From positions 2,871,194 through 2,929,033 of the forward strand of contig ML992501.1 in NCBI GenBank assembly GCA_010093995.1: DNA of 57,840 bases, given 5' to 3'. Every line of letters begins with the position of its first letter. The stretch's first letter is position 1. Under the pieces are notes generated by a model, which saw only the letters and a program-made list of their open reading frames with translations, had not been told where the DNA came from and ran no database searches. This document shows, piece by piece, positions 3,696 through 20,486 of the stretch. The position numbers were made by a program, and so were the translations under genes. This stretch comes from Elsinoe ampelina. Its lineage: Eukaryota.

Positions 3696-5267
3696 AAATA
3701 ACCAGGTCATCTTTCCGGTCCGTCTACCGACTCCGGGCTGGTGGTGCCCTATCTCACCCGCTCAATAAAGAGCCACAGAAGGAGATGAGTGCGATAGAGG
3801 GACAACACATCCTGCCCAACTAATCTCGTCACTACTAGGCGGGCAGCTTTGAGCGAGCGTTGCATGGATACATGGCTCCGTTCTCAGCACGGCCAGGAAT
3901 CGACAGCAGAACCTTGTTTTTACCGTTGTAGACGCTGTGGTCTGTGCCTGGAATGGTTGATTGGGCTACAACTTGTATTCAAAGACTTGGGAGCGTTCTG
4001 ATCAAGCTGAAAGGCAAATACGAACAACGATGCTTACTGGTCGAGGCAGAGAAGATTGAATCGTATACGATCCTCGCTAGACAATCTCCAGATAGTCCAA
4101 GCAGCCCAGTCACCGCGGAGCTGTGTCTCAATATCGGAGAAGTGGACTATAGCATGATCCATCAGCAGGCCACGGTATAGCAGCTGACGACTTAGCATCA
4201 AAGACACATATTGGCTGCGAAGACTGCAGAGAAAGTCAACGTGTTGGACGAGCTGCCCTCTGTCAACCTTTTGCTTACGTAATCGTAAAGGTCTGCGAGA
4301 GCGCATCTCAAATGGTTGTTCTCTTGCATGCAACACTTGATAGTCTCTGTGTAATCGCATTTCGCTCGCGAAACGCCATAGTGTAAATCAGCTTGCATGC
4401 CGTTTGCCATGCTGACATCCGCGGATTGAATGGCGTGGGAACACAGGTCAAATACTGACTGGCTTGAATAGGTCACCCCGTCCTCGACGCTCGTTTGCAC
4501 ACCCTCTGATACGCGATCTCCTGGTTACAGCCTTTCAAGGCACGGTGAAGAGGGAGTTTCTCTGTGACTCACTTGAGTTCTTTCGAGGCACCGACCTACG
4601 ATGAGGCACCACCTGCTGGTTGCTTTGTGAGAGGACTGGTGTACGGCAAGGCTTGTCACTTCACAGCAGCAGCGATGACGCAAAGGTCACATACTCATTG
4701 TGATGGCATCCACGCTTAGCATCCCACAGGATGTTATGGACGATTGGGAAGCCCTTGATGGATACTTGCCTGCCGACCTAGCCACGTAGTCCTGGACTCA
4801 TACTTCTACGCAGATCATGGGAGTTGTACTGCAAAACACCTGCCTTTCTCAAGGACGGCTGGTATCATGCAGGTCAGCTGCCCTACTTGACACAGCAGCT
4901 CACTTGAATGTCCGGAAAGCTTATGCCACAAAGGCGTTGCGCAGGACCCCACGTAGGTGTTCCCTTACCGCAGCACCAGGCCTCTCATTCCGTAAGCAGT
5001 CGTCGTCATGCAATAGGTTTTGTCAGTGAGGACATTGAGCAGACCTGGAATGAGTGACATGTGCGGGCGCCGCGAATCTTCCGTGACATGTGATCAAGAG
5101 CCCCTCTTTAACACAAAAATTTGAACAGACTCACATACGAGAGCTTTGTCTTCTCTCCTTCACACCACTCCACGCACTCTCATCGCATTACAATTCCACT
5201 CTGACCCACACATAGCTCCGGTAGTTTGACATCAACGTCTTCGGCTTTGAAGTCGCTAGCTGCAGAT

Positions 5268-8200
5268 ATGGCGATTCCGCCAGCGGAATGGTCCTTGAAA
5301 GGACGCTTCGACAAGGTGAAAAGCACCGATTCCAAATTCCACCGCTCAAACTATGATCATCAGCGCCTCTCTTCCTTCACTCGCAAATGCGCCTACATTC
5401 GGGTCGGCGACGAGCTGCTGAGAGGTACCGACGACGGACATCAGATCCTGTTCACAATGAACATCTCACCTCTCGAACACAAGTTCGAGCTGGAACTTCG
5501 GCTTTCGCCCGCGGCTCAGTCTGGCAAGGACAAGGAGAAGTTTCATAAGGCGCTCGAAGCCAATACGAAGAATCGCATGGCCGTCCATTTCTCTGCGCAC
5601 ATGAACTCTAGCAAGGATCGAGTTTCACAGCCATATTCCGGCCCGGGAGAATATCCAGCCAGCAGCAATGCTATCACCTTTTCCTCACAACTGCAAGCGG
5701 TTGAGTGCGTTCTGCTCTCCGATTACGAAGCCGCAAAGCACGTCAAACTACCAGCCCCAGTCCAAGGTTTTGCAAGTTCCGCTGCTAGTATTCAAGCCGG
5801 CAGGTCCACCGGCAACGTATTCCCACAGGGACCACGTAGTGGCAACGCTGTCACTGACAACCGTGGTACTGGCCGTGGTAGGTCTAACAGCAACATACTA
5901 CCAGGCGCCGGCCGCGGTGGTGGTCATACTGGCGGAGCCCGGCAGTCATCAAACGCGGAACCCGAGTACCTCCTCGTGACCTGGAAGGCCGACAGTGGGC
6001 AGGCGTTTGCATTCAGCAGGAACACCCAGAACCTGCCACGGGCGGCACAAGACGCTGCGGCCAAATTCAGGAAGATGCTCACGGAGTTCAAGACTGGTAG
6101 TGCATCGATCCAGGTCGTCATGCCGCACATGAAGGGCCTTCTCACACAAACGTGGCCAAGGTTCAAGTCTTTGCCGACGCCTACACCGGTCTCCTACTTC
6201 CCATGGCTCCGCCAAACCTCCGGGGGCGAGCTGATCGAGGTGTTGGCATTGAATGGTCCATTTCGTGTGGAGCACGACAGTCGCTGGATTGACACGGCGC
6301 TGGCCACCTCTTCCGGATTTACTACCACATCTCCCAGGCCGTCTGGTAGTACTCTGAGTGCGGAGGGCGTCAACAAGCTTGAGCCGTTGCCACTGAAGCT
6401 GAAGTACCACGACGCACGAGAGTATATAGCTCACGTCATCGGTGCTTTCTCCTAGGAAGAGGCACAGAATCGTCGTAGTATAGCTCAGACTCTCGACGGT
6501 CAGCATCTGTGCGACGTCTTCCCGGACAACTCACTTGGAGGTACAAACCTATATCTTATCGCATTGAAGGTTGGTAGAATTGGATCTCATCAAGTCGACT
6601 TTGAGAAGGAAGCCACTCTAGAAGCACAAGAAACCAGCGTGGAAGTCGGGGAGAGAGTACGTATCGATATCACTATGGACCAAAGTCTTGGGAAAGAGGA
6701 ATGGCACGGCAAAGTGGTCAGGATCCCGGATCAATATCGAAAGTTCGGTCACAACGTTGCCGTGATTGCGGATCGACCCCTACAGCCAGGTGGTATGGTC
6801 CTTACCAGCCGTCGACTGGTGGCAGACTTCCACTTCGGACATGCCGGTGGCTCATCACGCGGACTCCGTGAGCGGATAGTTGAGCTCATGCTGGGACCGA
6901 CAGCGTCCAACACGTCCATCAGGAATTTCCTCCTCTCGCACGACAACAACAATCTACAACTCCCCTTCGTCGTGAATGGCCATCCTGACAATTGGATCAA
7001 CGAGATTGATACCAAATATCTCAAGCCGAGGAATCTCAATCCAGAGCAAAGGGCCGTCATCTTCCATTATCTTCAGAACCGTGTGACCATTCTTGCGAGT
7101 CCTCCTGGTACTGGTAAATCAACGATTATCGACATCATCATTCAGATCGAGGAGGAATACTTCAAGCGATCTTTTTGGGCTCTCGCCGATAGCAATGCTG
7201 CGGTAGATGTGCTTGCGGGAATGTACATGGAGAGACGCAAAGAGAAGCAGATCTCAGGCATTTATCGTGTTCGACCAGGGTTCGAGGAGCAATATATTGA
7301 AGATGATCTTCATGGAGGTGGGTCTGGTCTCAGCTCGCTTCCCGGCTTTAGGGTACTACCACCAGCCTCATCACAGGAGCAGCTCAATGGTAGAGTCCGA
7401 ATCACTGGTGGTGCAACTAAGCCACTGTCCCTTTCCGCTGCCATCTCCAAAAGAGCCCAGTCCTTGCACAGAGGTGAAGCGTTCAAGGTACAGTACAGCG
7501 AAGAGGAGGCTCACCTCACAGCATTCAACGACGCTCATCGCGCCGCAACATCCATACGCCTGCAAGATAGCATGAGTCCCAGCGACCGTGCATTCACTGA
7601 AGAGAAGATGCGCAGGGACCAGCTTCGTGCCTTCCAGAGATTACAGCGTGCCTATGTAGCATCGAGCCGAGGCATATTCTCGACAGCTTCCGCCGCGTCT
7701 AATCCCGCCCTGCAATCGATCCAACCACAGGCTCTCATTATGGATGAGAGTTCTCAGATGATGGAAGCACGCGCTACTCGCGTCATCGCTCACGCTATGG
7801 CTGGTGGTCGGCTCGATCGCATCTTGATGGTTGGCGATGAGCATCAGCTACCACCAACGATAACGGCCGAGAAGAATCCGTTCGAGAAGAATGGGAAGAT
7901 GTCACAATTCGAGCGCCTGGTACTGGCTGAGTCCAAAGTCTTCATGCTGAAAGAGCAGTATCGCTGCCATCCCCAAATCAGCTCCATCCTCAATCGATTG
8001 ATCTACCAAGGACAATTGCGCAACGCTCCCATCACTACTGGACGTACAGGTCATATCGGCAGCTTCACCAAGTTCGTCAAGGAGAACTTGTTACCCTCGT
8101 CGCATCCTTTGCAAAAGTCTTCTGAGCCGATCTGTTCATTAGTCCTCAGTCCAGTGCAGAGCAAAGACTATTCCAGCTGGCTGTCGCAGAAGAGGCCTGG

Positions 8201-8642
8201 CAGCACCTCTCGACTCAACTTTCTTACTGCCGCGCTCGTCCTGAACGTAACTTCCCGGCTGCTAAAGGCCAAGCTGTCCAAGAAAGACATCCTCATTTCC
8301 GCGTTCTATGCCGGACACCTCCAGTCATCATGGATTGAGGACAGTCTGCGCCAGAATTACGACAGCGTCGTCAAGACGTATGCCTACCAGGGCCGCCCGT
8401 CGGAGGCAGGAAGGACCGTGATGCACCCAGAGGTCGCGAGTAAGGAGGCGGTGTTCAGCAAGGAAACTACCAGGGTGGTAGCGTCGCCGGATCGATTGCT
8501 GTCGTTGATGGTGGATGTGACGGGGGTTTCGGACGAGATGGCGAGGAGGTATATTGTGAAGGCGGAGGGAGAGTTGCATGTCGCGATCGAGACATATTAT
8601 AGAGACTATCCGATCAAAGATGAGGCGGTTGATATAGATTAG
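5268..8642 (+). pseudogene. Upf1-like superfamily 1 helicase with C-terminal UBA-like segment, interrupted by one in-frame TAG (pseudogene or recoded gene)
   Basis: ORFs 5226-6455 and 6564-8642 share a frame, and TAG 6453-6455 is the only stop between them. Motifs present: SPPGTGKS (Walker A), SNAAVD (Ia), LIMDESSQ (II), VGDEHQLPP (III), LKEQYRCHPQI. Motifs V/VI are not canonical. Confidence 0.75.
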
Positions 8643-9131
8643 GCTGGTAGTAGCACAGCGAGAACTACTACCACACTTCCCCACCCACCGTACTTCCGTA
8701 CTTCTACAACTATTCTACACCTCCCAGTTCTACAAGCCAGATGATGTCACCTTGACCTGGCGACTAGTAGGGATGTCATCGTGAAGAGTCTTCCATTTTC
8801 CCGACCGAAAGTGCCATCCCATCCAGACTCCACTAGAGGTGGAACTACTAGCGAATACCACCCACGACCAACGTATCCCCGACGACGAGCGGATGAGATC
8901 AGAGACATGGACATGATGCGACGAAACAGCAGGGAACGATGAAGTACTACCAGACAATAAGCATTACGATCTTTTTATCTACAAGCTAAACATCTTCAGC
9001 CGTTATCATCATAATCGTGACCACCACCGCCATCCCAACCACCGGCGCCACCATCATCATCTATACACCCTCCACTCTCTTCTATTCTACAACCCCCTCT
9101 CCGTCGCCTCTCCCCCCTCTGACCTTCCCCT

Positions 9132-9968
9132 TTACCGAGCAAACCTATACAAGAAGTAATTCTTGTACATCTTCAACGTCTGCCCAAAAGTAAACTCGGT
9201 CATGCACGCATCAAAGCTGTAATCCATGTAATTATGGATACTATCCACGCCTTTACCGGGGCACGAGTCCTGACCCTCGGGACACCCGAACGTGACGGCA
9301 GACTGGATGGGAGTATCAAAGACATAATCGCCACGTCCCTCACAGCTCTGGTTCTGGAAAACGTGGAAGACACCGAACCAGTGACCGACTTCGTGGACGG
9401 CAGTGAGACCAAGGTCGTAGTTCGTAGCGTCACCACCCGGCATGGAGCCCGCGAGGTTGGTGCAGCCGTCGAGAGTGAGGATGGAGGAGTTGACGCGCTT
9501 CTCGGGGAAGTAGCAGAAGCCGAGCAGGCCGCCGCCGAGGTCGGAGAGGAAGTAGAGGTTGAGGGTGTCGTAGGTGCCTCTGCGGAGAGCGGTCTTCATC
9601 TCCAACTCGGTGTCGGACTCGGGGAGGCCGCCGGTGGCCCAGGCCTCGTTGACGGTGAAGGTGGTGCCGACGTTCTTGTAGCTGATGCCGGCCGGGGCGT
9701 AGGCGTCGTTCATGACGTCGATTTGGCGGTCGACGATGGCTTGGTCGTAGAGAGGGGCGGACTCGGCGGTGGTGACGACGTGGACGTAGGTCTCGACTTC
9801 GATGCCGAGGCGGCGGGCGCGGGCGTCGGTGGACGGCTCGTTGGCGGCTTCGTCGACGAGTTCTTTGGAGGGGGCGGGGGCGCCGCAGCGGGAGGTGATT
9901 TGGCGGGGTGCGAGGGAGTGGGCGAGGGTGGTGCCGCAGAGGGCGAGGATGGGGGCGGTGAATCTCAT
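9132..9968 (-). CDS. Secreted zinc metalloprotease, peptidase family M43 (MEP1/ulilysin-like)
   Basis: Signal peptide MRFTAPILALCGTTLA, zinc motif HEVGHWFGVFH and Met-turn NYMDYS; single exon. Confidence 0.93.
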   Translation of the reverse strand: MRFTAPILALCGTTLAHSLAPRQITSRCGAPAPSKELVDEAANEPSTDARARRLGIEVETYVHVVTTAESAPLYDQAIVDRQIDVMNDAYAPAGISYKNVGTTFTVNEAWATGGLPESDTELEMKTALRRGTYDTLNLYFLSDLGGGLLGFCYFPEKRVNSSILTLDGCTNLAGSMPGGDATNYDLGLTAVHEVGHWFGVFHVFQNQSCEGRGDYVFDTPIQSAVTFGCPEGQDSCPGKGVDSIHNYMDYSFDACMTEFTFGQTLKMYKNYFLYRFAR

Positions 9969-11407
9969 GGTTGCGGATGGGGGATGGGTGAGGGGTAGGG
10001 AGGGCAGAGGGGGAGGCAGGAGAGGGGATATATACTTGTGTCCGGCATGCTATCCAGAGCATGGCCCGATATCAGTTCGGGGATGATCAATATTGCTGGC
10101 CCAACATCTTTGTCGCTACCGAGGGACTGGCAGGACGAGGCGCACTTACCAGTCAATGCACTTTGTCAAGATGATCAGCGACCCTCAGAGAAATTTCTCC
10201 CGTGGCGTGTTGCTCTGGGTCGACTAGTCGAGCAGACCGCGCGAAAGCACTCGATCAGCGCGCGATAACGAGGAAGCAAAAGCTTGCATTTCGTCGCCGA
10301 GTCCGGAACCTTCGCCGTTGCCGCATCGCTAGCTGCATATTCACTTATGAAGAAGCTCTGAGAGAAGGAGAGAACCACGCGAGAGGCGTCCCGGGACATG
10401 AGCGACCTGCCCGATTCCCTCTATCAAAGGCAGGTCGTTTCCGAAGGGAGCAAAAAAACCAAGCATGATGTTCGCGGCGGACTGTCTTGGCGTGGCGCTG
10501 GTGCTGCGGGTGTAATCTGCAGTCGAATCTTGTGTTGCGGTAGGAACCGAATTTCTGATATGGAAGGCGTTCGGTCACGTCGTCCAAGCTTTTTTGAGGC
10601 GAAAAGTGGTGCAGATTTCTCCGCAGCGGTCGGACGGGATCTGATAGGTTGACGAGCAGGCGGTTCGACTGCGTACGATTTGCTTGAGCAGACCTCTTGT
10701 CTCCTCTCAATTGGTGGCCATGCTCATGCTAGTCAAAGTCCTGAGAGCACTGGTAGTAATGTGCCTTCTTGTTACTCAATCTCCCCTCCTGATAGGATTA
10801 TTTCCTGAACCACTCAGCATTCAGAAGCCGAACAACAAATCTACACCGCAGATCTTCGCCGCCGACCATATCTCGCGCTAACACCAGACAGGCAATTCGC
10901 AACCCAGCCACGGCCTTGGCAATCCGAGTGTTTGTGCTTCTGGAATCCTGCATGTTTGCTCGTGACATGCATGTCGTGACTAGTGCCGGTGCTTGACAGC
11001 TGGGGTGACATGATAGGCACGCGACTATTGGAGAGGGGCACATACTGGTAGGATCTTTGCATGCAGGGGAGGCAATACGAGGGCCCGCATTGTGTGGAGA
11101 GCTGGCGGTGCTTTTGCGGTTGATGAGTTCTGGTAGTTGATTGGTCGGCGGCTGAAGTCATTCACCGCGAAGGACAACCTCACTGTTTTTTGGTAGTTGT
11201 TTGCGCTCGTAAACATGTCAAGTCTGGTGAGCACGATTGATGGCGTACGCCGTGCGTATGTCCGACACGGTCAGGATGAAGAGTAATTCGCTATATCCAT
11301 TCATAAATCGACAGTCATCTGCATAAACGTACCAGCCCTAGTCAGCCCTCTCCAGCCCTCACGACAAGGTATCAAGAAGCATTCTTTTCTGCCCTACCAA
11401 CACAAGC

Positions 11408-13566
11408 TTACTTCTTCCCCTTGTGCACCGTCTCAATAATCGTATCCACAACCGACGGATCGCTCAGCGTCGAAGTGTCACCCAATTGATCCTCCTCACC
11501 GGCCAAAATCTTCCTCAAGATTCTCCTCATGATCTTGCCCGACCTCGTCTTTGGCAGATCCGACACAATGTATACCGCCTTTGGTGCAGCGAATGGTCCA
11601 ATGCTCTTGCGTACCTGCAGGATCAGGTCCTTCCTCAGCTGATCGGTGGGCTCGTTGCCGTCCTTGAGGCCGACAAAAGCGTTGACGGCTTGGCCGGTGA
11701 GTTCGTCCTGCACGCCTACCACGGCGGCTTCGGCGACGGCGTGGTGCTCGATCAGGGCGGCTTCGATCTCGGCGGTGGAGAGGCGGTGGCCGGAAACGTT
11801 GACGACGTCGTCGACTCGGCCGCGGATCCAGTAGTAGCCTTCGTGGTCACGGGCGGCGCCATCACCGGTGAACTGGACAGGTTAGATGAGGAAGCCAACT
11901 CGGTGTTGGGAGATGCTTACGTAGTATCCCTTGTACACGTTCAGGTAGGTGTCCATGTATCTCTTGTGTGCGCCCCAGACCGTTCGTGCCATACTGGGCC
12001 ATGCCTGCTTGAATGCCAGTACACCCTCGACGTCGTTGCCGTGGATCTCCTCCCCTGAGACTGGGTCGATGATTGCGGGCTCGATGCCGAAGAAGGGAAG
12101 GGAAGCACTGCCTGGTTTGGTCGGGGTCACACCTCCGAGGGGTGTAATGACGTGGGATCCGGTCTCTGTTTGCCAGTATGTCTGGGTGAAATCAGTCCTG
12201 GCCCCTTGCAACAGTCGTCCCGGCTACTTACATCCACAATGTGCGCCTCCTGCTTGCCAACAATCTCATGGTACCACTTCCAGACCTCTGCTGCAATCGG
12301 CTCGCCGACACTACCGAGCACTCTGAGCTGCTTCATCTCATGCTTGACATGCTGATCACCTGCCCGCTTGAGGAGGCGCAGCGCTGTCGGCGCGACGTAG
12401 AATTGTGAGACGTTGTGCCTAGCGACCACTTCCCAGTACCGCGAGAAGTCAGGGTAAGCTGGGGTACCCTCGAAGACGACAGTGGCGACACCGAGAAGTA
12501 GAGGAGCGTAAACGACATAGGTGTGTCCTGTGATCCAACCCACGTCACCACCGCAGAAGAAGACGTCTTGGTCGTGAATGTCGAAAACATACTTTCCAGT
12601 CAAAGCAGCGCCGAGTAGATACCCAGCGGTCGTGTGCATGACACCCTTGGGCTTGCCTGTCGAGCCGGATGTGTAGAGGAGGAATAGTGGGTCTTCCGAG
12701 TTCATGCTCTCTGGTGCAATGTACGAAGGGTACTTTTCGAGCTCCTCGTGCCACCAGAGGTCGCGGTCCTTGGTCCATGGGATCTCCGCGCCAGTCCGCT
12801 TGTAGACAAGACAGTGGGTGATGTCAGGGCACTGCTTCAATGCCTCATCGACAATCTTCTTTGTGCCGATGACCTTGCCTCCACGCTTGCCCTCGTCTGT
12901 GGTGATGACGACCTTGGATTGAGCGTCGATGATGCGGTCGCGTAGAGAGTCGGATGAGAAACCAGCAAAGACGACCGAGTGGACTGCGCCGATACGCGAG
13001 CAAGCGAGGAAAGCGATCAAAGCCTCGGGAATCATGGGCAAGTAGAGAGCCACAGTGTCACCCTTCTTGACGCCCATCTGCTTTAATGTGTAGGCCAGCT
13101 TGCTAACTTCCCGTAAGAGCTCGCCGTATGTGATTGTCCTCCCCTCGCCAGATTCGTCTGCTTCATAGATGATGGCCGGCTTGTCTGGGTTCTTCGCCGC
13201 ATGTCGGTCAACGCAGTTGTAGGAGGCATTGAGTCGTCCTTCGAGAAACCAGGCATTGTCACCACCGGCGAGCGAGCCGGTGTGGACGGTCTGAAAGTCG
13301 CGCTCCCATGAGAGAGTCTCGCGGGCCATGCGACCCCAGAACTCATTTGGCTTCTCAATCGACTCCTTGTAGAGCTTCTGGTACTCCTCAATGCCGCTCA
13401 AGTGGGGTTTCGAATGGTGTTTTCTACACGCGTGTTAGTCGCACACAGTAAGAAGCTTTGGACTGGCGGCGCACTTGTAGAAGGCTTCTGGGACATGGTA
13501 GGTACCGACCTCGTGCGCCTCTGGCACGACAGGTCCCTTTGGCGGCTCCTGGGTTCCTTCAGACAT
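11408..13566 (-). CDS. facA: Acetyl-CoA synthetase (AMP-forming)
   Basis: [19 protein letters not shown] and [12 protein letters not shown] motifs. ATG at 13566; introns at 13474-13424, ~12230-12183 and ~11920-11873. Confidence 0.97.
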
Positions 13567-15110: not shown

Positions 15111-16162
15111 TTAGTTCGGTAGACACGACAGAATCGGCGCCAACTTCCTCAACACCACCGCCTGATTAGCAGCCGACGTATCCTGCTTGTTATTCCCGCC
15201 CAACGACACACTCACGAAACAACCATCACTCCTCCCCACGACGGAAGACTCAGTCGGCAACCTCGTGCCCCCACAAGTCTGCACATCAGGCGGCGTGATC
15301 AACGGCACTGCACCATTGATGCGCGTCAGGATAAACCTGAACTGGTTTGGGTTGCCACATCTCGTGGACGAGCTCTCGGGGAAATTCACGTTCAGGTACG
15401 TCAGGCGTGGAAGCAGAGGGGTGCTGGAGCGCAGCAGAGTTTGCGTCACGTTCGTGGCGAGATCGGCGTAGACGCGGGCATAGACGGGCGTCGGGGCGGT
15501 GAAGCTGATCGGGTCGCCGCTGGCGCCGGAGAAGGCGATGGCCGGGAAGCCTTGGGTGGAGGCCTCGGTGGCGGCGCCGACGGTGCCGGAGAAGAGGGTC
15601 ACGACACCGAGGTTGGCTGGGGGAAAGATTAGTGGGAGCAGCATAGTCATGGAGGTGGAGGAGACTTGCAGCCGACGTTGGGGCCCGTGACGACGAGGTC
15701 GGGGCGGGCGCCGAGGATGCGTGGGGCAATGTTGATGCCGTTCCTGACTGCGTCGACGGGGAAGGCATTCACGTAGTTGAAGCGGGCGTTGTTGGGGTCG
15801 GAGCCGATGGCGGGACTGTTGGCTGGGCAGGAGTTGAATTGGCAGGGTTGTGTGCGAGAGGTAGGGGTGGCCGATCGAGAGCCTGGGAGGAGGTCAATTG
15901 AGAAGTCTTGATGGTGGATGATATCTTGTACCTGAGCCGGACTGGTTCTCCGCTGGACCTGAGAGAACTACATTCTCGCCAGCCGCGGTGAGGGCACTGT
16001 AGAACGTTCTGATGTTCTTCTCCGCCCAACCCTATATAGATATCAGTAAGAAGCTACTGATGATGGCCCGCGACTGTCACTTACATCGTCATTAGAGAGG
16101 ACGAGATTAGCGGCGTTGGCAGCGAGCGGAAGCGCCGCAAGGACAGCGCCAGAGAAGTGCAT
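15111..16162 (-). CDS. Secreted SurE-family acid phosphatase / 5'-3'-nucleotidase
   Basis: Signal peptide MHFSGAVLAALPLAANA, then LSNDD|GWAE, PAENQSG, PDLVVTGPNVG.NLG and FSGTVGAA; three introns. Confidence 0.92.

Positions 16163-19117: not shown

Positions 19118-20486
<1,369 letters not shown>

Follow-up and report, generated by a model that had tools for sequence, protein, structure and literature searches.

The gene at positions 5268-8642 on the forward strand of a window of Elsinoe ampelina DNA (the whole stretch analysed, 57,840 nt) is most likely a young pseudogene and not a case of programmed recoding, with a probability of about 0.85. A conserved tyrosine codon (TAY) has become TAG at 6453-6455 by a third-position transversion. 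An independent second lesion, a microhomology-flanked in-frame deletion at 8308-8313, has led to the loss of RecA2 motifs V and VI. The locus would then be a disabled allele of an Upf1-like SF1 helicase of the Ascomycota type. Its RNA would persist unspliced with the UAG and its protein output would be at most a 395-residue N-terminal fragment. The public protein model spans the stop by a probably invented 57-nt intron. The original prediction had described the locus as a recoding candidate or young pseudogene. Its nonsense-mutation alternative was upheld, and its recoding and intron alternatives were not.

The frame runs from an ATG at 5268 to a terminal TAG at 8640-8642 and is comprised of 395 codons, a TAG, 728 codons and the terminal TAG. 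The sole interruption is the TAG at 6453-6455, in the context TTC TCC TAG GAA GAG, and the translation across this site reads ...EYIAHVIGAFS*EEAQNRR.... No further stop or frameshift was found in the translation of 5268-8642. Measured from stop to stop, 5205-6455 (416 aa) and 6456-8642 (728 aa) are open in the same frame. In the other two forward frames there were 13 and 13 stops across the first stretch and 25 and 27 across the second, and chance therefore does not explain two long open frames in register. Residues 1-1058 of P0002, a protein of E. fawcettii, were continuous with 5268-8309 by tblastn, straight through the TAG. The predicted frame with its single in-frame TAG was thereby confirmed by both coordinates and translation.

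Judging from its sequence, 5268-8642 is by descent a Upf1-like SF1 helicase gene of Elsinoe ampelina, and the predicted family was right. Pfam AAA_11 was matched on the RecA1 side at 7032-7865 (E 2.6e-22, residues 193-470 of the second frame). AAA_12 was matched on the RecA2 side at 7899-8393, where the region is truncated and covers only profile positions 3-149 of 195. A C-terminal UBA-like domain is located at 8493-8603 (Pfam UBA_4, E 5.3e-05, 23.4 bits compared to a cut-off of 21.8). All three are on the forward strand. Relatives with solved structures were searched using a profile of the intact relatives. Upf1 was the best (E 5e-44), with Nam7, IGHMBP2, Sen1, ZNFX1 and DNA2 also among those ranking best, and all three core stretches aligned to Upf1. 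Motif I (Walker A, GxxGxGK[ST]) is present as PPGTGKST at 7101-7124. The residue just before Walker A is Ser in the window copy, while Gly is invariant in 18 of 18 close relatives. Motifs II (IMDESSQ), III (VGDEHQLPP) and IV (QYRCHP) are also there, each aligned with its counterpart in the relatives and in Upf1.

The window copy has Walker A, the DE box, GDxxQLPP and QYRxHP in common with the Upf1-like SF1B helicases (Upf1/Nam7, IGHMBP2, Sen1, ZNFX1, DNA2). It differs from them in its stop and in lacking motifs V and VI. The family also differs in an N-terminal region of its own, approximately 300 residues without a Pfam match, and in the C-terminal UBA-like domain; the CH zinc-knuckle domain of Upf1 is absent by Pfam. 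The public protein P0001, annotated as "hypothetical protein [Elsinoe ampelina]", has the sequence of the window frame minus 19 residues. P0002 was 52-55% identical to the window frame over at least 91% of its length. P0002 ("AAA domain-containing protein 4") and P0003 of E. australis ("AAA domain-containing protein 1") have the same end-to-end architecture as the window copy. Unlike it, both are intact and have Tyr where the window copy has the stop, as well as motifs V and VI. They are described as paralogous and orthologous Elsinoe proteins. The nearest clusters of the intact helicase family were from Ascomycota.

The fold model of the N-terminal region had a mean pLDDT of 68.9 and a pTM of 0.70, with pLDDT values of 80-98 over approximately residues 40-160 and 230-300. 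Foldseek found no match to this model in the PDB at E <= 0.001. In a wide VIA-align comparison the best hits were PH-like domains (FACT, REC114 and others) and part of plant RDR2. This modelled likeness is a lead only, as the best Z of 5.8 is below the noise level of the tool (approximately 8).

The premature TAG at 6453-6455 on the forward strand stands in place of a tyrosine codon conserved in the family. The corresponding column of alignment A3 (42 relatives) contained Y in 30, R in nine and D, T and N in one each. Tyr was present in all 25 of the closest relatives in this alignment and in the four relatives of alignment A1. Trp and Gln were found in none of the 42 relatives at this column, and none shared a stop codon there; E. 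fawcettii and E. australis have Tyr. As the relatives have Tyr and never Trp or Gln, the alignment indicates that the TAG arose as a third-position TAY>TAG transversion, and neither from TGG nor, by a RIP-type change, from CAG. Restorative editing of an ancestral TGG had been suggested, as had RIP, and the aligned residues support neither. The gene also had no RIP-like dinucleotide bias under the usual index thresholds. Its TpA/ApT was 0.57, its (CpA+TpG)/(ApC+GpT) 1.26 and its GC 0.537, close to the 0.65, 1.23 and 0.529, respectively, of the whole window. RIP was rejected as the cause of the stop on this lack of bias and on the change being a transversion.

The predicted stop was borne out, and a second lesion, which had gone unseen, was found at 8308-8313. 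This is the forward-strand junction of the in-frame deletion, ATGCCG, a 6-bp microhomology common to both sides. The deletion is approximately 109 codons in size as measured on P0002. Approximately 115 alignment columns are empty in the window copy and filled by four of four relatives in alignment A1. A tblastn search of the full 57.8 kb gave no match to residues ~1059-1149 of P0002. The window copy is without motifs V (TxDxxQGxE) and VI (RRxNVAxxRA), which all four A1 relatives have. Among the 18 closest full-length relatives, 17 matched a strict motif V pattern that the window copy does not. In the alignment to Upf1 the missing portion is the VDAFQGREKD...RRLNVALTRAR region. Motifs V and VI of SF1 helicases couple ATP hydrolysis to nucleic-acid translocation. 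The locus is probably not a working helicase gene and its product is probably non-functional. The loss of these motifs weakens most heavily the idea of a gated full-length helicase.

The undeleted form was found in runs X4 and X5 at 98-99% identity. These runs are from a separate study with the same species label and cover only ~8209-8660 and 8959-9000, outside the TAG. Their contigs match the window to 8313 or from 8308 and then continue as the two ends of the missing segment, to which the flanking letters were assigned by hand translation. Run X1 yielded a single contig for the locus, so there is no second, intact copy for the strain of the window in that run. The helicase locus varies within the species, with the deletion present in the strain of the window and not in another sample.

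Outside the lesions the gene is well preserved. Of 62 columns without variation among 18 relatives the window copy retains 60, which is within the leave-one-out range of the relatives themselves (0.92-1.00). As the remainder of the frame is well kept the damage appears to be recent, and both lesions are probably young. Good preservation is predicted by a young pseudogene and also by continued selection. Five differences were found between the window and X4/X5, three synonymous and two non-synonymous, which are too few to measure constraint.

A transcript-like contig was obtained from run X3 and corresponds to 5261-8725 on the forward strand (3466 letters, no differing letters, no gaps). Its ends lie 7 nt upstream of the ATG and 83 nt downstream of the terminal stop, while the X1 DNA contig extends further in both directions. 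Runs X3-X6 are marked "RNA?" as a guess; none is recorded as RNA and none is from the sexual stage. The guess of the tool and the end positions of the contig suggest that X3 is RNA. As its contig is gapless with no differing letter, the transcript would be unspliced and would keep the TAG. If X3 is RNA, the gene is probably still transcribed as a single unspliced RNA carrying the UAG, and its continued transcription counts against the pseudogene reading. Almost none of the sampled window words were present in runs X5 and X6. X1 and X3 are two libraries that may be from one strain. The TAG was seen in these two alone, with X4 and X5 reaching only ~8209-8660 near the gene.

A functional truncation, in which either the N-terminal fragment of 395 residues or a C-terminal piece from an internal ATG is kept as a protein, is improbable. 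The transcript suggested by X3 persists and the N-terminal model contains a confident domain (the stretches with pLDDT 80-98), both of which are consistent with such a product. However, no stand-alone N-terminal relatives were found among 5268 candidates of 217-692 aa at E <= 0.001, in a search that is weak in that it needs shared 5-residue words. The C-terminal part carries the second lesion, which is better explained by decay than by a new use.

Conditional recoding would produce the full-length protein at one life stage, through sexual-stage A-to-I editing of UAG to UGG or through readthrough, and is very unlikely here. The 728 open codons downstream of the stop and the transcription suggested by the X3 contig are compatible with it. 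So is the UAG itself, which has U at -1 and its A in a predicted hairpin loop, a context favoured by fungal editing. Every UAG has U at -1. The predicted fold, at -15.2 kcal/mol, puts the A in a CUAG tetraloop (4-nt loop), but this hairpin is no better than shuffles (z -1.61, 16 of 200 as good). The +4 base after the stop is G, which is not known as a leaky context. A recoded product would still be without motifs V and VI, and the stop is absent from E. fawcettii, E. australis and all 42 relatives. Editing gives Trp where 25 of the 25 closest relatives keep Tyr. The X3 contig keeps A at the stop, but contigs drop rare variants and it is therefore silent on the sexual stage.

The premature-stop "pseudogenes" of Fusarium graminearum, which are restored by sexual-stage A-to-I editing, likewise have a single in-frame UAG, an open transcribed frame and U at -1 (Qi et al. 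2024, PMC10776026; review PMC11156358), and edited TAGs in Fusarium need not come from TGG (PMC10776026). Unlike the Fusarium cases, the E. ampelina gene has a second disabling lesion and a stop that is not common to congeners. It also belongs to a class without known editing, and no edited read was seen. The review reports genome-wide editing only for Sordariomycetes and one Pezizomycete (Pyronema). It names Aspergillus nidulans and Botrytis cinerea as species in which none was found and gives other classes as undetermined; Dothideomycetes have no occurrence in it (PMC11156358). Sexual-stage editing at 6453 is unlikely. The specific form in which ADAT-type editing of this UAG in the rarely seen sexual stage of E. 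ampelina gives a stage-specific product is a shade less probable than recoding as a whole. If true, it would have no precedent in Dothideomycetes, and the edited product would be an ATP-binding, helicase-like protein without motifs V and VI and with Trp for the ancestral Tyr.

It is likewise very unlikely that the stop lies within a real frame-preserving intron, at 6422-6478 or 6369-6455, perhaps through recent "intronisation" rescuing a nonsense mutation. The first of these spans, on the forward strand, is the only intron of the public model P0001 (1105 aa), whose 57-nt skip hides the stop and accounts for the 19 residues by which it falls short of the window frame. The second is the 87-nt intron of the original prediction. 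Both begin with GT, end with AG and have a length that is a multiple of three. The 57-nt size resembles that of two RPL3 introns in the window, 52 nt (19252-19303) and 50 nt (19461-19510), which are the only two comparators and were inferred from reading frames. However, chance alone places the TAG inside thirteen GT..AG spans of 45-120 nt that preserve the frame. A TAAC-like branch site, which both RPL3 introns have, is absent from the last 25 nt of the 57-nt span. The X3 contig is ungapped over both spans, although contigs can miss minor isoforms, and no splice joint at the locus was reported in four runs. The spans encode the motif REYxAHxxG..YEE, which is kept across the family, and splicing would remove part of a conserved helix. 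The 87-nt stretch aligns to conserved protein sequence of the relatives and, with X3 crossing it ungapped, was not supported as an intron. Within 6422-6478, 17 of the 19 non-stop residues are identical to P0002, compared to 52-55% overall. A premature stop masked by a short in-frame intron is a usual artefact of gene predictors. P0001 fits this pattern fully, with 57 nt around the TAG and no difference. Its intron was judged to be a probable artefact that conceals the premature stop.

A sequencing or assembly error, with the TAG or the deletion absent from the organism, is practically negligible, as the contigs of X1 (word depth 157, a DNA run and possibly the one behind the window) and X3 (depth 19, a separate library) had no differing letters over the TAG site and agreed exactly with the window over 5261-8725. 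No point in support of such an error was found.

The locus has little general significance. A recoding candidate is removed and what is left is an ordinary two-hit pseudogene. The public protein model P0001 is flagged as an artefact. The deletion varies within the species, which makes the locus a minor marker for population work on the fungus of grapevine anthracnose. In its intact form the family combines an N-terminal domain without a Pfam match with an Upf1-like core and a UBA-like tail. It is uncharacterised and may be worth studying in a species where it is whole.

The helicase frame runs on the plus strand from an ATG at 5268 to a terminal TAG at 8640-8642, and its sole interruption is the TAG at 6453-6455, flanked as TTC TCC TAG GAA GAG, just as originally predicted. 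The two stop-to-stop frames, 5205-6455 and 6456-8642, share one register. The two other forward frames contain 13 and 13 stops in the first part and 25 and 27 in the second, so the open frames were regarded as a real coding signal. The locus was read as a young pseudogene, still transcribed, that derives from a Upf1-like helicase and carries two independent lesions (probability roughly 85%).

Pfam domains AAA_11 (E 2.6e-22), AAA_12 (E 8.2e-15, profile positions 3-149 of 195 only) and a C-terminal UBA-like domain (E 5.3e-05) were found in the second frame, with no Pfam match in the first. Searching with the whole frame, the stop replaced by X, retrieved five database proteins. These were P0001, the public model of the locus ('hypothetical protein [Elsinoe ampelina]', 1105 aa, 98% identical to the window frame), P0002 from E. 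fawcettii (1278 aa, 52% identical), P0003 from E. australis, and the unnamed P0004 and P0005. The best solved structure for a profile of four intact relatives was Upf1 (E 5e-44), followed by Nam7, IGHMBP2, Sen1, ZNFX1 and DNA2. The AAA_11/AAA_12 and Upf1 matches bear out the earlier helicase call. In a 1.84-billion-protein library the profile found about 20 near-full-length clusters, and the nearest Atlas clusters were on record as Ascomycota, with taxa recorded for few members. The gene thus belongs to a fungal branch of the Upf1-like SF1B helicases, one that carries an N-terminal region of its own and ends in a UBA-like tail.

Tyr stands at the stop column in all four intact relatives, within a conserved REYxAHxxGxxxYEE. 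Among 42 relatives in a wider alignment, drawn from the database search and the profile search, the residues were Y 30, R 9, D 1, T 1 and N 1, with neither W nor Q, and Tyr was present in 25/25 of the closest (P0002-P0028 as listed). This points to TAY, and neither TGG nor CAG, as the parent codon; as judged from the alignments, TAG is one third-position transversion from it. The TGG-restoring and CAG>TAG origins first put forward were not borne out. A G>A change of TGG, the most frequent source of edited stops in Fusarium according to PMC10776026, was ruled out with Trp in 0/42 relatives. RIP-type C>T of CAG was ruled out with Gln in 0/42 and no RIP-like dinucleotide bias in the gene by the customary thresholds. 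Values for the gene (TpA/ApT 0.57, (CpA+TpG)/(ApC+GpT) 1.26, GC 0.537) were near those of the whole window (0.65, 1.23 and 0.529).

The second lesion, a deletion of motifs V and VI, was missed in the original prediction. After ...ISAFY about 115 alignment columns filled by 4/4 intact relatives are empty in the window. These contain helicase motif V (TxDxSQGxEA) and motif VI (RRRFNVAMSRAK), the counterpart in Upf1 being the VDAFQGREKD...RRLNVALTRAR region. Of the 18 closest full-length relatives, 17 match a strict motif V pattern, which the window lacks. E. fawcettii has 109 residues between the flanking landmarks. By tblastn, P0002 residues 1-1058 aligned at 5268-8309 and residues 1150-1278 at 8244-8639, and the stretch between had no match anywhere in the 57.8-kb window. 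Contigs of X4 and X5, runs from another study with the same species label, were 98-99% like the window as far as 8313, or starting at 8308, and then diverged. Their loose ends, hand-translated in frame (left DQVSLIKALF..., right ...KEQQSRDQIVD), match the ends of the E. fawcettii segment (TDQVNLIKALF... and ...KEQSDRNQIID). Six letters, ATGCCG (8308-8313), are common to the window and both contigs, so the window allele was read as a deletion between two 6-bp direct repeats. No intact second copy was found in the DNA run X1, possibly the window's source, which gave a single contig at at least 90% likeness. The deletion is the derived state, and sequences under the one species label are polymorphic for it.

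Of 62 columns that do not vary among 18 close relatives, the window retains 60, inside the leave-one-out range of intact relatives (0.92-1.00). One of the two apparent losses comes from how the alignment falls at the edge of the deletion. The second is Gly>Ser at 7098-7100, directly before Walker A, where 18/18 close relatives have Gly; it may add a third, milder indication that constraint has relaxed. Five differences separate the window from X4/X5 within 8308-8660, three synonymous and two non-synonymous, too few for a rate test. Recent inactivation is the simplest reading, and the good preservation is also compatible with ongoing constraint.

Retained function of the N-terminal fragment was considered unlikely. 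A structure model of the N-terminal 395 residues (mean pLDDT 68.9, pTM 0.70) had confident beta-rich and helical blocks (residues ~30-310, window 5268-6200). A disordered Gly/Arg/Ser/Thr-rich linker (5772-5942, plus strand, residues 169-225, pLDDT below 50) is shared with P0002 but absent from the three other aligned relatives; P0002 has an extra Ser/Gly-rich insertion further along. Foldseek found nothing at E <= 0.001 with this model, and a wide structural search gave PH-like domains at Z 5.8 or less, below the tool's noise level. The region could be a PH-like module, either new or highly divergent, joined to a Upf1-like core.

The contig of the separate library X3 (3466 letters, depth 19) starts 7 nt upstream of the ATG and reaches 83 nt past the stop codon, while the X1 contig extends beyond it at both ends. 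These ends and the small total size of the run make a transcript assembly the likely reading, its 'RNA?' mark being a guess. If X3 is RNA, the gene would be transcribed as intron-less RNA retaining the UAG, with no bearing on the sexual stage. Editing or readthrough of the UAG was judged very unlikely. According to PMC11156358, fungal mRNA editing is documented in Sordariomycetes and Pyronema; in A. nidulans and B. cinerea none was found, and its status elsewhere is undetermined. In favour of editing, the A of the TAG has U at -1 and lies in a predicted CUAG tetraloop, and edited TAGs often arise from non-TGG codons (PMC10776026). However, the hairpin was no better than shuffles (z -1.61, 16/200 equally good), the stop is common to none of the 42 relatives and Trp would stand where the 25 closest keep Tyr. 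Most weightily, the recoded product would still be without motifs V and VI. Of the two readings first offered, the two lesions and the Tyr ancestry support the young pseudogene and not the recoding candidate.

A real intron over the stop is hardly credible. P0001 is the window frame with 20 codons (EYIAHVIGAFS*EEAQNRRS) swapped for a single Asp codon, so the model assumes a 57-nt GT..AG intron at 6422-6478. In this span 17/19 non-stop residues are identical to E. fawcettii, compared to 52-55% overall. The X3 contig is ungapped across both this span and the 87-nt intron initially suggested at 6369-6455, and no spliced joint was reported across four runs, whose contigs may miss a minor spliced form. 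The TAG falls within 13 GT..AG spans of 45-120 nt that preserve the frame, so a gene predictor will always have one to use. The local comparators were the two introns of RPL3 (ribosomal protein L3), at 19252-19303 (52 nt) and 19461-19510 (50 nt), with the donor pair GTAGGA, GTCAGT. Both, placed from reading frames, have TAAC-like branch sites 5-12 nt upstream of the acceptor, whereas none was found in the 3' part of the 57-nt span. The latter was taken to be an annotation artefact.

Sequencing or assembly error, also raised originally, was effectively dismissed because neither the X1 contig (96 kb, word depth 157) nor the X3 contig shows a gap or a differing letter against the window.

Downstream, long open frames overlap on opposite strands at 9123-10049 (291 aa plus, 305 aa minus); the minus-strand frame matched M43 (pappalysin-like) metallopeptidase (E 1.4e-12) and the plus-strand frame had no family match. 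An acetyl-CoA synthetase-like gene (AMP-binding, ACAS_N; 12127-13431) and a SurE-like gene (15111-15890) follow on the minus strand. With such ordinary housekeeping neighbours the pseudogene lies in a normal gene-dense region and not a repeat block. Overall the case is an ordinary one; in practice it corrects how one public gene model is read and adds a presence/absence polymorphism at the locus.
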